From Dictyostelium discoideum (lineage: Eukaryota): 64,000 nt of DNA. Numbering within the stretch: the stretch's first letter is position 1; the number at the start of each line of letters is the position of its first letter. The notes beneath the pieces were generated by a model, which saw nothing but the letters and a program-made list of their open reading frames with translations, did not search any database and was not told the origin of the DNA. A program made the position numbers and the translations under genes. The stretch spans positions 3,680,001 to 3,744,000 of the forward strand of contig CM000154.2 in the NCBI GenBank assembly GCA_000004695.1, in the 5' to 3' direction. This document shows positions 46,519 through 58,432 of this stretch, piece by piece.

Positions 46519-49302
46519 TTAATTAATTTTATAATGATAATTATTATTATTATTGTCAAGTTGTAGAAAACTAAAATTAATTTTTTTCATGGAATCAGAA
46601 AAACTTGTCAATGGATTTGATAAGGAATTTGAAATTTGATTTACATTTGTCCAAACTTCACCTAATATATCATGATGATGTAAATCTATACAAAATAGAT
46701 TTACTCTCACCAAAAGTAATGCCTCTTGTTTTGGTGTTAAAATTGAACATAATGTTGCAAATGTATCCAAACCTAAACTTGCATTTAAAATGATTTTATT
46801 TTTTAAAGATTCCAATTTTGAAGCGAAATCCAATAATTCAAAATTATTCAATGGAGCGATTGATTCTGTTGTTGTATTTGGAATTAATTCACCTTCACTA
46901 TAGTAATCACTATTCAACAGAGGTGTATCTGGTGTTGGTAATACATTTTTAATGAAAAATCTTTTAATAATTAAGTCTAATTCTAAGAGTTCATTTGATA
47001 ATCTTGAACTAACTTTACCATATTGAAAACGTAAAGAATCTATTTTAATTGATTGTTCAGGTGTAATATTTGCTTCAATTTTAAATAGATTTAACCATTT
47101 ATCAGATTCTGGACCTTGAAATATATTTAAAACTAAAGGTGATGATTTTGGTACATATCCAATACAACAAAGTCTAATAATATTATATATATAATAATTT
47201 AGTTAATAAATAAAAATAAAATAAAAAAAAAGTTTTTTTTTTTAAAAAATTAAATAAACATACCTTAATTGTGTATAGGGATTAATTAATTTGTTTACTT
47301 CTTTTTCAAGTAATGAATATCTTTGATCAATTGTACGATGATATTGATGTAAAAGATAAATTAAAGATTTTTCATCATCAATTATTAAAGCATGTTTTAT
47401 ATTTTCAATTATTAATTTACCATCCATTAACATTTTCATTGACTCTGGTTCCATTCTCATCATCTCTATTGATCCATTAGTTCTTATTGATCCATTTTCT
47501 TTTTCAAGTCTATTATTCTCTAGAGATAAAGTTGCTATTTTATTTTCAATCTCTTTTATATAATCTTTTTTTTTTAATCTATAATTTCTACTGGCAATAT
47601 TTTGATTATACTTTTTTATTGATTCTTTTGATTCATAAGATTCTTTTAATTGATGTTGTTGTTGTAGTTGTTGTTGTTGTAGTTGTTGTTGTTGTAGTTG
47701 TTGTTGTTGTTGTTGTTGTTGTTGTTGTTGTTGTTGTTGTTGTTGTTGTTGTTGTTGTTGTTGTTGTTGTTGTTGTTGTTGTTGTTGTTGTGGTGGTGGT
47801 GATGGTGGTGATGGTGGTGATGGTGGTGATGAAGGTAGTGATGGTGGAGGTATAAATGAAGAAATAGGGGTATGTTGTTGTTGTTGTTGTTGTGGTGAAT
47901 AGAATGGAGTTGGAAGTTGTAGAGTTGAATTATTTTGATTTAGTATTGTTTGTTGATTGTTTAGAAATTGATTTTGTATCATTTCAGATATTGGACTTAA
48001 AGTTTTATTGGTATTATTATTATTATTATTATTATTATTATTTAAAATGTAATTTTGTAACTCTGGAGGTATTTGAATACTTTGTTGTTGTTGTTGTGGT
48101 TGTTGTTTTTGATGTTGTTGTTTTTGTTGTTTAACTTTTTGTTTAAGCTGTTGTTTTTGTTGTTGTAATAATTGTTGTTGCAATTTTTCCTGTTGCTCTT
48201 GTAATTGTTGTTGTTGTAATAATAATTGTTTTTGTTGTTGTCTTTTTTCTTCTTCAAGTTGTTGTAATTGTAATTGTTGTAATTGAATTAACTGTTGATA
48301 TGGTTGTAATTGTTGACTTGCTTGGATTTGTTGATATGATTGAAGTTGATATGGTTGTAATTGTTGAAGTGGATGAATTTGTTGAGGTGATTGTGCTGTT
48401 TGTTGAATAGCTGATAATAATTGTTGTTGAATTGATATATCTTTTAATTCTTCAAGTAGTGTTGGTTGTGTTAATTGTATTGGTTGTGTTAACTGTATTG
48501 GTTTTGTTGGTTGTGTTGGTTGTGTTGGTTGTTGTTGTTGTTGTTGTTGTTGTTGTTGTTGTTGTTGTTGTTGTTGTTGTTGTTGTTGTTGTTGTTGTTG
48601 TTGTTGTTGTTGTTGTTGTAATGGTTGTAATTGTATTTGGTTATTTAGTAAAAAAATTGATATGTCATTATTATTAATACAAATATTATTATTTATATTA
48701 TTATTATTACTATTACTATTACTATTACTATTACTATTACTATTACTATTACTATTACTATTACTATTACTATTGCTATTATTATTGTTATTATTATTAT
48801 TATTATTGTTATTATTATTATTATTATTATTAGTTATTGGTGGTATTGAATTAAAATTTAATGGAGGAGATGAATAAGGTTTTTGATATTGGTCTTGATA
48901 TTGTTGTTGACGTTGTTGATATTGATCTTCATATTGTTGTTGATAGTTTTGTAATTGTTGTTGAATTTGTGTTTGACATTGATGTTGTTGCTGTTGTATT
49001 GATTGAAGTCGTTCAAGATATTGTGGGTCATTAGAATTAGTCTCTATATTTTCATTCATTATTTGGGGAGATCCAATATTATTATTATTATTATTATTAT
49101 TATTATTATTATTATTATTATTATTATTATTATTATTATTATTATTATTATTATTATTATTATTATTATTATTATAGTTAATATTATCATCGTGTATATT
49201 AAATTGTTGTTTTTGTAGTTGTTGTAATTGTGAATATCCATCTAATAAGTATAATAACACATCTTGGTCTGGCGCTAACAAAGGATTTTCAAAATTATCC
49301 AT
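46519..49302 (-). CDS. bZIP transcription factor, paralog 1 of a four-gene tandem array, 2 exons
   Basis: Exons complement 47264..49302 and 46519..47173, with donor gtatgt (phase 2) and acceptor ttattag. N-terminal MDNFENPLLAPDQDVLLYLLDGYSQLQQ. Basic region plus zipper [41 protein letters not shown]. The C-terminal family domain is ...RYSLLEKEVNKLINPYTQLR-LCCIGYV...[38 protein letters not shown].... Huge poly-Q/poly-N tracts are present. Confidence 0.75.
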
Positions 49303-56206: not shown

Positions 56207-58432
56207 TTAAGGTTTTTCAAAAATTTGACTTAAATCACCAATTTTAAATGGATCACTTGATTTTTTCATTTTTGATTTATTTGCCCAAACATTTGTGATC
56301 ATTTCAAACTTTTTCAAATTGAAACATGAGAATATATCGATTTCAACCAAAAGTAAAGCTTCTTGTTTTGGTGTTAGTATTTTACTAAGTGAGGAGAAAG
56401 TTTCAAACATTAGACAACTATTTTCAAAGAATTTGTTTTTTAATAATTTCAATTTACAAGCAAATTCAATTTGTTGAGAAAGGTCCAAAGGTTTTGAAGT
56501 TTTCAAAGAGATACTATAAGATTGAAAAACAAAAATATTTTGAAAAAAGAATTTTTTCACCTCAGAATCCAAATCATGAATTTCATCCAACAGTTTAAGA
56601 TTATATTCGCAATATTTTTCACGAATGATATCTAATTGAACCGATTGTTGGGATGTGATATTAGCCTTCTCTTTGAAAAGGTTAAACCAGCTATCAGACT
56701 CTATGCCTTGGAAAATGTTGGTTAGGAAAGGTGTAGATTTCAACACGTATCCAATAGAAGCCAACCTTAGTTGTATTTCCGGACTTGCGATTTGTTCAGC
56801 GTCTTTATCAATGGACGAATATCTTTTAGCCACTGCACCATGATACATGTGCAATAAATAAATTAAGTTTTTTTCATTATCTTCTTTTAAAGCCTCGCCT
56901 ATTTGTCTAACAATACTTCTAATCTCTAGCATTAGTTGCTTCTTTTCTGGTGACGGTTTTAAAATAGCCATTGTACCACCTTCATGTTCTTGTTGTCTAA
57001 TTGATTCATTCTCTTTTTTTAATTTTTCATTCTCTAAAGTTAATTCCATCATTTTATCCTCAATATCCTTTATATGATCCTTTTTTCTTTGTCTAAAATT
57101 TCTATTTGCTATATTTTGATTAATTCTTTTTATTGATTTTTTTGATTCATCATCAAATGTTAAATTAAATTGTTGTTGTTGTTGTTGTTGTTTTTGATAT
57201 TCTAATTGTTGTTGTTCTAATTGTTGTAATGTTAATATTTTATTTATATCTGTTGTTTGTTGTTGTTGTTGTTGTTGCTGTTGCTGTTGTTGTGATGGTG
57301 ATATTTGATTTATATCAGTTGAGTTAGAGTTTATTATAGTTGGTACAGGTGATGATGGAGTAGGTGGTGAAGTATTTTCTTTTTGTTTTTCTATATTATC
57401 TCTTTTTTGGTCTACATTCAATGTATTTATTGTGTTATTCGTTTTTTGAGTTTGAAAATATGATAAAAGGTGTTGATCTAACTTTGGTGTATTAAAAAAT
57501 ATTTGTTGAGAAAGAGGCATTGAATTCGATGACTGCTTTGATTGATTCTTTTTATTTATTTCTTTTTGCTGTATTGTTTGTGGTGGTAATTGCTGCTGCT
57601 GTATTTGTGGCTGTTGTAGTTGTATATGTTGTTGTAGTTGTATATGTTGTTGTGGTTGTATCTGCTGCTGTGGTTGTATCTGTTGTTGTACTTGTACCTG
57701 TGGCTGTTCTATTTGTATTTGTTTCTGTATTTGTTGTGGCTGTGGTTGTGTTGGTATTTGTTGTGATTGTATTTGAATATGTTGTAGTTGTGATTGTTGA
57801 GGTAGCTCATGTTGTATTGGTAGTTGTTGAAACTGAGGCTGTTGTTGGTGTTGTTGGTGTTGTTGGTGTTGTTGTTGTAGTTGTTGTAGTTGTTGTTGTG
57901 GTTGTTGTTGTTGTTGTGGTGGTGATGATGGTGATGGTGGTTGTTGTTGTTGTTGTAAGGATTGTGGTGGTTGTTGTAGATTTTCTTGACCTAAATGAAA
58001 TTGTTGTTGAGGAACTAAATCATTTTTTTCAGAATAAATAAAAGAAGGTGGTGTATATGGTTTTTGATATTGTTGTTGATATTGCTGTTGACGTTGTTGA
58101 TATTGTTGTTGATATTGTTGTTGAAAATTATGTAATTGTTGTTGAATTTGGTCATGTTGCTGTTGTTGCTGTTGTTGTAGAAATTGAATTTGTTCAATGA
58201 TTTGAGGTTTATTTTCAATTGATGTATCACTATTTAATGATTCCTCTAAACTTTGAAAATTTAATCCACTTATATTTGTAGTGGTAACATCGCCAGTGTT
58301 AAAATCTATACTATTTATAAAGTTTTCTTGGTTGTTTTGAACAATTGGTAATTGTTGCAATTGTGAAACATCATCAAATAAAAATAACCATGCATTTTCT
58401 GGTTCTAATATGGAATTGAAAGATTCATCCAT
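56207..58432 (-). CDS. bZIP transcription factor, paralog 4, single exon, 741 aa
   Basis: MDESFNSILEPENAWLFLFDDVSQLQQ. Basic region KRINQNIANRNFRQRKKDHIKDIEDKMMELTLENEKLKKEN. C-terminal domain SPEIQLRLASIGYVLKS...[39 protein letters not shown]. It is Q/P-rich. Confidence 0.75.
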   Translation of the reverse strand: MDESFNSILEPENAWLFLFDDVSQLQQLPIVQNNQENFINSIDFNTGDVTTTNISGLNFQSLEESLNSDTSIENKPQIIEQIQFLQQQQQQQHDQIQQQLHNFQQQYQQQYQQRQQQYQQQYQKPYTPPSFIYSEKNDLVPQQQFHLGQENLQQPPQSLQQQQQPPSPSSPPQQQQQPQQQLQQLQQQHQQHQQHQQQPQFQQLPIQHELPQQSQLQHIQIQSQQIPTQPQPQQIQKQIQIEQPQVQVQQQIQPQQQIQPQQHIQLQQHIQLQQPQIQQQQLPPQTIQQKEINKKNQSKQSSNSMPLSQQIFFNTPKLDQHLLSYFQTQKTNNTINTLNVDQKRDNIEKQKENTSPPTPSSPVPTIINSNSTDINQISPSQQQQQQQQQQQQTTDINKILTLQQLEQQQLEYQKQQQQQQQFNLTFDDESKKSIKRINQNIANRNFRQRKKDHIKDIEDKMMELTLENEKLKKENESIRQQEHEGGTMAILKPSPEKKQLMLEIRSIVRQIGEALKEDNEKNLIYLLHMYHGAVAKRYSSIDKDAEQIASPEIQLRLASIGYVLKSTPFLTNIFQGIESDSWFNLFKEKANITSQQSVQLDIIREKYCEYNLKLLDEIHDLDSEVKKFFFQNIFVFQSYSISLKTSKPLDLSQQIEFACKLKLLKNKFFENSCLMFETFSSLSKILTPKQEALLLVEIDIFSCFNLKKFEMITNVWANKSKMKKSSDPFKIGDLSQIFEKP

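Follow-up and report, generated by a model that had tools for sequence, protein, structure and literature searches.

We analysed a 64-kb stretch of the Dictyostelium discoideum genome (assembly GCA_000004695.1, contig CM000154.2, positions 3,680,001 to 3,744,000 of the forward strand), referred to below as the window and used for all position numbers. The window is extremely AT-rich, with a GC content of approximately 0.12–0.30. Between positions 46519 and 58432 it contains four intact minus-strand genes, delineated from a listing of open reading frames (ORFs) and splicing by hand, which encode basic leucine zipper (bZIP) proteins of 897, 716, 843 and 741 amino acids (aa):

46519..49302, minus strand: paralog 1, 897 aa, exons 49302..47264 and 47173..46519, adjoining the tom1 gene
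50693..52843, minus strand: paralog 2, 716 aa, single intronless ORF
53307..55838, minus strand: paralog 3, 843 aa, single intronless ORF
56207..58432, minus strand: paralog 4, 741 aa, single intronless ORF

The NCBI gene calls for the same chromosome (GCA_054883475.1, CM142511.1, 3.81–3.84 Mb) give proteins of 741, 843, 716 and 897 aa consecutively, followed by a 663-aa gene and then a MIOX gene. When the bZIP and C-terminal region of paralog 3 was used as a tblastn query, exactly four copies were found in the window, the other three with E values of 1e-82 to 1e-95, a similarity far beyond chance; no fifth copy or pseudogene was found across the 64 kb. Identity to paralog 1 was 43–49% over the bZIP and C-terminus (approximately 330 residues), and the copies are pairwise 40–49% identical within the C-terminal domain. 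Because synonymous sites are saturated at 40–49% protein identity, we set aside ratios of non-synonymous to synonymous substitution between the paralogs. ORFs, splicing, NCBI lengths, tblastn and Pfam searches (below) agree with the initial annotation of this region, which had proposed four tandem, same-strand bZIP paralogs; each gene is intact.

The genes can be named as a set. In D. discoideum, tom1 bears the identifier DDB_G0290163 and encodes a 75.4-kDa product (PMC12390135), and the 663-aa neighbor carries a GAT domain in its main ORF and has a size that fits. The identifiers of bzpR (DDB_G0290165), bzpO (DDB_G0290169), bzpS (DDB_G0290171) and bzpI (DDB_G0290173) are listed by Forbes et al., 2019 (PMC6873476, supplement). 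Because tom1 adjoins the array and the dictyBase identifiers are consecutive, the four genes, taken together, are almost certainly the annotated bzpR, bzpO, bzpS and bzpI (DDB_G0290165–173), and the array itself was therefore already known. Paralog 1 is probably bzpR (DDB_G0290165), a name that comes from its position next to tom1 rather than from a sequence match.

To assign the bZIP domains we scored Pfam PF00170 and PF07716, with the curated gathering score as cut-off. Once the low-complexity part was removed, bZIP_2 (cut-off 22.3 bits) matched paralogs 1 to 4 at 22.5, 25.3, 31.9 and 24.0 bits, and bZIP_1 scored above 27.6 bits in paralogs 2 and 3 only. Full-length paralogs 1 and 2 gave no Pfam match at all, owing to low-complexity composition bias. 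A bZIP domain is thus present in all four proteins, and the failure to reach profile thresholds that had been named in advance as a reason to doubt it did not occur. The domains lie as follows:

47482..47622, minus strand: paralog 1 bZIP, aa 561–607, basic region and four-heptad zipper
51551..51691, minus strand: paralog 2 bZIP, aa 385–431
54138..54278, minus strand: paralog 3 bZIP, aa 521–567
56996..57136, minus strand: paralog 4 bZIP, aa 433–479
47584–47613, 51653–51682, 54240–54269 and 57098–57127 (approximate), minus strand: basic regions, NQNxASRNYRxKKK

The predicted heptad Leu/Ile zipper was also found, in register with the basic region: the first d position lies at +18, and the d positions are I18, L25, L/I32 and L/I39. 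Asn fills both of the consecutive a positions, 29 and 36, in every copy (motif LENxxLxKEN), while the e position of heptad 3 (e33) is E, Q, H and K, making it an interface position that differs in every copy. The proteins are predicted to bind DNA as zipper-mediated dimers. Under the established a/e/g pairing rules for bZIPs, the two a-position Asn residues would favor pairing inside the family, and the e position of heptad 3 could bias the partner preference of each copy. The zipper sequences are consistent with the combinatorial dimerizing module that had been suggested for the array.

The basic region departs from the canonical form. In canonical bZIPs an invariant Asn of this region contacts DNA. 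Gln stands at that position in 41 of 42 members of the wider family described below, all four paralogs included, and its placement (Q-N-x-A-S-R-N-Y-R) follows from a gapless HMMER alignment to the plant factors TGA7 and TGA3. The signature N-x7-R with the invariant Asn (N-x2-[AS]-[AS]-x2-[SCYF]-R) is accordingly absent, Gln replacing Asn, although the Arg at +8 is kept, as is the RKK cluster. The corresponding signature NxxSAxxSR is deeply conserved (Jindrich and Degnan, PMC4736632). DNA specificity of the Gln-bearing basic region may be altered.

Directly after the zipper, each protein has a C-terminal domain that is all-helical in the structural model. It measures 239–262 aa, rather than the approximately 200 aa first estimated:

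46645..47481 including the intron, minus strand: paralog 1 TGA/DOG1-like helical domain, aa 608–856
50765..51550, minus strand: paralog 2 TGA/DOG1-like domain, aa 432–693
53388..54137, minus strand: paralog 3 C-terminal domain
56279..56995, minus strand: paralog 4 C-terminal domain

We tested the C-terminus of plant TGA factors as a relative because of a by-eye likeness in LTPxQ motifs. The paralog 3 domain was modeled with AlphaFold2 (all-helical, predicted local distance difference test score (pLDDT) 69.9) and searched against the PDB with Foldseek. The top four matches were all to the NPR1-interacting domain of TGA3, with probability 1.00 and target-normalized template modeling (TM) scores of 0.62–0.68, and beyond TGA3 only TGA7 exceeded a TM score of 0.3. 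TGA3 and TGA7 were the only strong fold matches of two independent models. By fold, the array proteins thus share a mark of plant TGA factors: a helical, DOG1-type domain that follows the zipper directly.

Sequence profiles gave the same answer, but only when built from the broad family. A HMMER profile of 77 homologs, run against 177,635 PDB sequences, had as its top three matches TGA7 (8.5e-13), TGA3 (4.3e-12) and a TGA3 domain construct that lacks the bZIP (3.2e-06), ahead of all other bZIP structures. In hhalign, 60 amoebozoan domains aligned with 119 plant TGA2-clade domains over 206 colinear columns with a probability of 93.8% and E = 1.7e-7, whereas control alignments that had been reversed or column-shuffled gave E = 0.3–0.8. 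Plant TGAs scored 33–36 bits with a domain-only amoebozoan hidden Markov model (HMM), and the plant HMM matched a homolog from Flabellula at 26 bits. The two best-conserved motifs of the domain here, NITPEQS and ILTPKQEA, align with the NPR1-contacting EP-TD and TTR of TGA3. Fold, profile-to-sequence comparison and profile-to-profile comparison with controls together lead us to assign the domain, as a diverged member, to the TGA/DOG1 domain superfamily; its placement is exactly that found in TGA factors. The initial annotation had regarded it as novel and unrecognizable, and had allowed that it might turn out to be a known domain with a non-transcriptional function; it is instead a diverged homolog of the plant TGA C-terminal (DOG1-type, NPR1-interacting) domain, which belongs to transcription factors.

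The family extends well beyond the array. When the domain profile was run exhaustively with HMMER against 1.84 billion representatives, 77 homologs were returned at E ≤ 1e-3, 45 of which carry a Pfam bZIP. The named members are from Tieghemostelium, Synstelium and Acytostelium (Dictyostelia), the protosteloid Clastostelium and the tubulinean Flabellula, and include D. discoideum bzpM (DDB_G0282047); the others are unnamed metagenome or transcriptome sequences. By sequence, then, the family spans Amoebozoa, from Dictyostelia to Clastostelium and Flabellula. With the small starting profile no plant protein was found at E ≤ 1e-3, and no homolog was identified in other supergroups, where the searches were insensitive.

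Within D. discoideum, bzpM and its neighbor bzpK (DDB_G0282049) have the same architecture as the array proteins and likewise form a tandem pair, on another chromosome. They share a Q-rich block with the array (IQQQLQNYQ..QYQ.RQQ.YQ.QYQ.PY), but their basic region has degenerated further (ESSKNFREKKK). A bzpK/bzpM-like tandem pair of the same family was also seen in a related genome (GCA_054859205.1, JBTAPH010000029.1, 4531–6559 and 6848–8837). Its second gene is annotated as two, of 353 aa and 278 aa (the latter as 'hypothetical protein ACTFIY_007728'), which looks like a single gene split at its intron.

Upstream of the bZIP, the proteins share shorter elements. An N-terminal motif, M[DE]..[FL]ESFFxQLxP..EQD, occurs family-wide across Amoebozoa, and the array carries a degenerate form of it. 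The N-terminal motif is therefore not private to the four genes, as had been supposed: its first half recurs in the amoebozoan homologs, and only the ..DDFSQLQQ that follows looks array-specific. The linkers, which take up several hundred residues per protein, consist of 63–71% N, Q, T, P and S. Their description as almost wholly diverged low complexity holds for this composition, but not for a 30-aa Q-rich block, QQQLQNYQQQYxDQYQQRQQQYQxQYQKPY, that is kept in all four genes and also in the bzpK/bzpM-like pair. A further motif, FFNTPKLDQxLLS, is common to paralog 4 and bzpM and missing from paralogs 1, 2 and 3. These elements lie as follows:

49219..49302, minus strand: paralog 1 N-terminal motif, aa 1–28, degenerate family-wide motif followed by array-specific ..SQLQQ
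52757..52843, minus strand: paralog 2 N-terminal motif, aa 1–29
55758..55838, minus strand: paralog 3 N-terminal motif, aa 1–27
58352..58432, minus strand: paralog 4 N-terminal motif, aa 1–27
48874..48963, minus strand: paralog 1 Q-rich block QQQLQNYQQQYEDQYQQRQQQYQDQYQKPY, aa 114–143
52400..52489, minus strand: paralog 2 Q-rich block, aa 119–148
55056..55145, minus strand: paralog 3 Q-rich block, a diverged version, aa 232–261
58055..58144, minus strand: paralog 4 Q-rich block, aa 97–126
57437–57475 (approximate), in a minus-strand gene: paralog 4 motif FFNTPKLDQHLLS shared with bzpM, aa 320–332

In a neighbor-joining tree of the C-terminal domain, the four genes form one clade in which paralog 4 branches first: (par4,(par1,(par2,par3))). 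The array clade has bzpM as its sister, and the two together are sister to dictyostelid orthologs present in single copy, T. lacteum KYR02069 among them. The basal position of paralog 4 fits with its being the only copy to keep FFNTPKLDQxLLS.

In our judgment the array is very probably bzpR/bzpO/bzpS/bzpI, a set of lineage-specific duplicates of a pan-amoebozoan, TGA-like bZIP family whose C-terminus is homologous to the TGA DOG1-type domain. Several observations weigh against this reading. The gene names hold for the set and not one to one, and the neighbor-joining tree carries no support values. The link to TGA requires the profile of the wider family and relies on predicted structures with pLDDT values of 70–76: a profile of the four paralogs alone matched nothing in the PDB and in hhalign reached only E = 0.01 over 44 columns. 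The plant alignment is shallow (effective number of sequences 1.4) and covers the TGA2 clade only, and sequence identity to TGA3 and TGA7 is 13–16%. Finally, the Pfam DOG1 family (PF14144), which is present in all the plant TGAs retrieved, had no match in the four C-terminal regions at E ≤ 10, and among the 77 homologs none matched it at E ≤ 0.01. The lack of a phenotype in the bzpR knock-out (below) also belongs on this side.

The low identity and the empty PDB search with the four-paralog profile, together with the lack of any Pfam family matching the domain, would also suit a C-terminal block that is new and private to Dictyostelium or Amoebozoa, with its TGA likeness reflecting convergence of helical bundles. 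We consider such convergence very unlikely. It does not sit well with TGA3 and TGA7 being the sole strong fold matches of two independent models, with TGAs being the top PDB profile matches even for the bZIP-less construct, or with a profile alignment that is colinear over approximately 206 columns at an E value far below those of the shuffled controls. Moreover, the position of the domain directly after a short zipper is the same as in TGA factors.

Homology does not make the array proteins TGA factors in the strict sense. The plant TGA factors (bZIP group D; Arabidopsis TGA3, PDB 7TAE/7TAC, and TGA7, PDB 8GYZ) form a monophyletic clade, to which the array family, being amoebozoan, is at most a sister or outgroup and not a member. 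The basic region reads NQNxASRNYR in the array family and QNREAARKSR in TGA, with the invariant Asn changed to Gln in the former, and the zipper has four heptads rather than three. Unlike TGAs, the array proteins have very long N-terminal Q/N-rich regions and the N-terminal ESFFxQL-type motif, and Pfam DOG1 is blind to their domain. DOG1 and DOG1-like proteins (PF14144, PROSITE PS51806) belong to the same helical domain superfamily, a likeness that is drawn here through TGA, but unlike the array proteins they lack a bZIP.

The amoebozoan family could have been acquired long ago by horizontal transfer of a TGA-type gene from a plant or alga, rather than inherited vertically from a bZIP-DOG1 gene of an early eukaryote. 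Its distribution, as far as known, is patchy, no homolog was identified here from any other supergroup, and a 2022 review calls TGAs and DOG1 plant-specific (PMC9360754), all of which favors transfer. The family is, however, shared by Dictyostelia, Clastostelium and the tubulinean Flabellula, three amoebozoan lineages far removed from one another, is strongly diverged from the plant sequences, and has family-wide signatures of its own, namely Gln at the Asn position and the N-terminal ESFFxQL motif. Any transfer must therefore predate the amoebozoan radiation, and on balance we regard transfer as unlikely.

Under vertical descent, the bZIP plus DOG1 architecture would have been present in the amoebozoan ancestor, hence probably in an early eukaryote, and would not be a plant invention. 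In addition, the family-wide change from Asn to Gln would imply a shifted DNA-recognition code. We give this combined proposal an even chance. Neither the ancient bZIP-DOG1 origin nor the family-wide Asn to Gln change was found in the literature searched. We likewise found no literature linking Dictyostelium or other amoebozoan bZIPs to TGA/DOG1, though InterPro, PROSITE and PANTHER may already record the link.

The introns provide a second view of the history of the array. Only paralog 1 has one:

47174..47263, minus strand: paralog 1 intron, 90 nucleotides (nt), AT-rich, GT..AG, phase 2, splitting QL-R|L in the DOG1-like domain

Its phase follows from the 2039 nt that precede it. If the intron is left in, the frame runs into a stop at 47242, and the homology is picked up again in a different frame. 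The NCBI model of the 897-aa product spans 2784 nt, which implies the same 90-nt intron. ORFs, splicing and model span therefore bear out the earlier description of a phase-2 intron inside the C-terminal domain of paralog 1 alone. In the T. lacteum ortholog a single intron of 71 nt follows the zipper directly, and each gene of the bzpK/bzpM-like tandem pair in the related genome has an intron at the same post-zipper site. bzpM and bzpK keep this ancestral intron, whereas all four array genes read through the site; the paralog 1 intron lies approximately 80 codons beyond it, within the domain. Because the ancestral intron is absent from all four genes, the paralog 1 intron is most simply a gain. 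Of the two events that had been left open, loss or gain after duplication, we thus favor gain in paralog 1, the ancestral intron having been lost before. On the most parsimonious history, the array's founder would have lost the post-zipper intron and then duplicated three times, and paralog 1 would later have gained a new intron inside its DOG1-like domain.

According to Forbes et al. (PMC6873476), bzpI, bzpO and bzpR are prespore-enriched, and bzpS and bzpI are spore-enriched. The bzpR null, the sole knock-out reported for the set, is wild-type (PMC6873476, supplement), which counts against a distinct role for each copy. Cell-type expression and the wild-type null together point to developmental roles with redundancy among the copies. 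The same null phenotype could instead mean that the array is a group of largely redundant or decaying duplicates with no distinct function per copy, their conservation reflecting recent duplication, and no orthologs of bzpI, bzpO, bzpR and bzpS are given for four other dictyostelid genomes (Forbes et al., PMC6873476, supplement). We think this quite unlikely. All four frames are intact over 716–897 codons, the genes are expressed with the cell-type preferences just described, and the domain is only 40–49% identical between copies, which means that the copies are old. Furthermore, retention has been selective: bZIP, DOG1-like domain, N-terminal motif and Q-rich block were all kept, while the linkers were replaced by different low-complexity sequence.

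From N- to C-terminus, the array proteins consist of the N-terminal motif, a Q/N/T/P-rich region with the Q-rich block, a bZIP with Gln for Asn and four heptads, and a helical domain of approximately 250 aa. In plants, the domain has been assigned roles in palmitate binding, dimerization and NPR1 contacts, and in heme binding in DOG1 (PMC9360754): TGA3 holds palmitate, and DOG1 binds heme and, as cited in the same review, PP2C phosphatases. By analogy with TGA3 and DOG1, we infer that the C-terminal domain is a regulatory module, which could offer a second dimer contact, a docking surface for cofactors or a pocket for a hydrophobic ligand. The studied Dictyostelium bZIPs DimA, DimB, BzpF and BzpN, of the same superfamily and organism as the array proteins, are regulators of development or proliferation and act as dimers.

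The array itself is an ordinary, annotated, lineage-specific tandem bZIP expansion; the value of the result lies in the identity of the shared domain. TGA and DOG1 proteins, described as specific to plants, regulate immunity, redox signaling and seed dormancy (PMC9360754). A homologous domain, diverged but still demonstrable, that is fused to bZIP in the same order across Amoebozoa would date the module to well before land plants. If so, the pair of LTxxQ motifs through which Arabidopsis TGA3 contacts NPR1 would predate NPR1 signaling and would have a broader function, in structure, partner binding or ligand binding. Dictyostelium would then be a tractable non-plant system in which to ask whether the basal role of the domain lies in holding a ligand, contacting a dimer partner or docking a cofactor. 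An annotation is gained by at least five D. discoideum bZIPs (the array four and bzpM, and probably bzpK), as well as their amoebozoan relatives, over a domain that Pfam-based annotation currently leaves blank, and the family-wide change from Asn to Gln amounts to a testable prediction of altered DNA specificity.

We found no enrichment of TGACG/ACGT motifs upstream of the four genes, a check that bears on autoregulation only. A single TGA-factor core site lies close to a start codon, and all further occurrences within the array fall in coding sequence. This site and the neighbor of paralog 1 are placed as follows:

49440–49445: TGACGT, TGA-factor core site, approximately 140 nt upstream of the paralog 1 start codon
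44359–46068, plus strand: neighbor matching D. discoideum tom1 (DDB_G0290163), convergent with the array, a GAT-domain protein with a long Q/N-rich tail

On its other side the array is flanked, directly upstream, by a tandem pair of paralogs on the minus strand (58710–59882 and 60464–61633), which encode proteins of 390 and 389 aa that are mutually 40% identical (E = 5e-73). No Pfam family matches either protein. The N-terminus of the second resembles a signal peptide, and both carry a hydrophobic tail at the C-terminus. At the window edge, minus-strand ORF fragments at 63024–63990 run into a HECT-domain ubiquitin ligase gene, for which the NCBI call gives AZUL and HECT domains. A transfer RNA gene, tRNA-Arg(TCT), lies at 13576–13648 on the plus strand.

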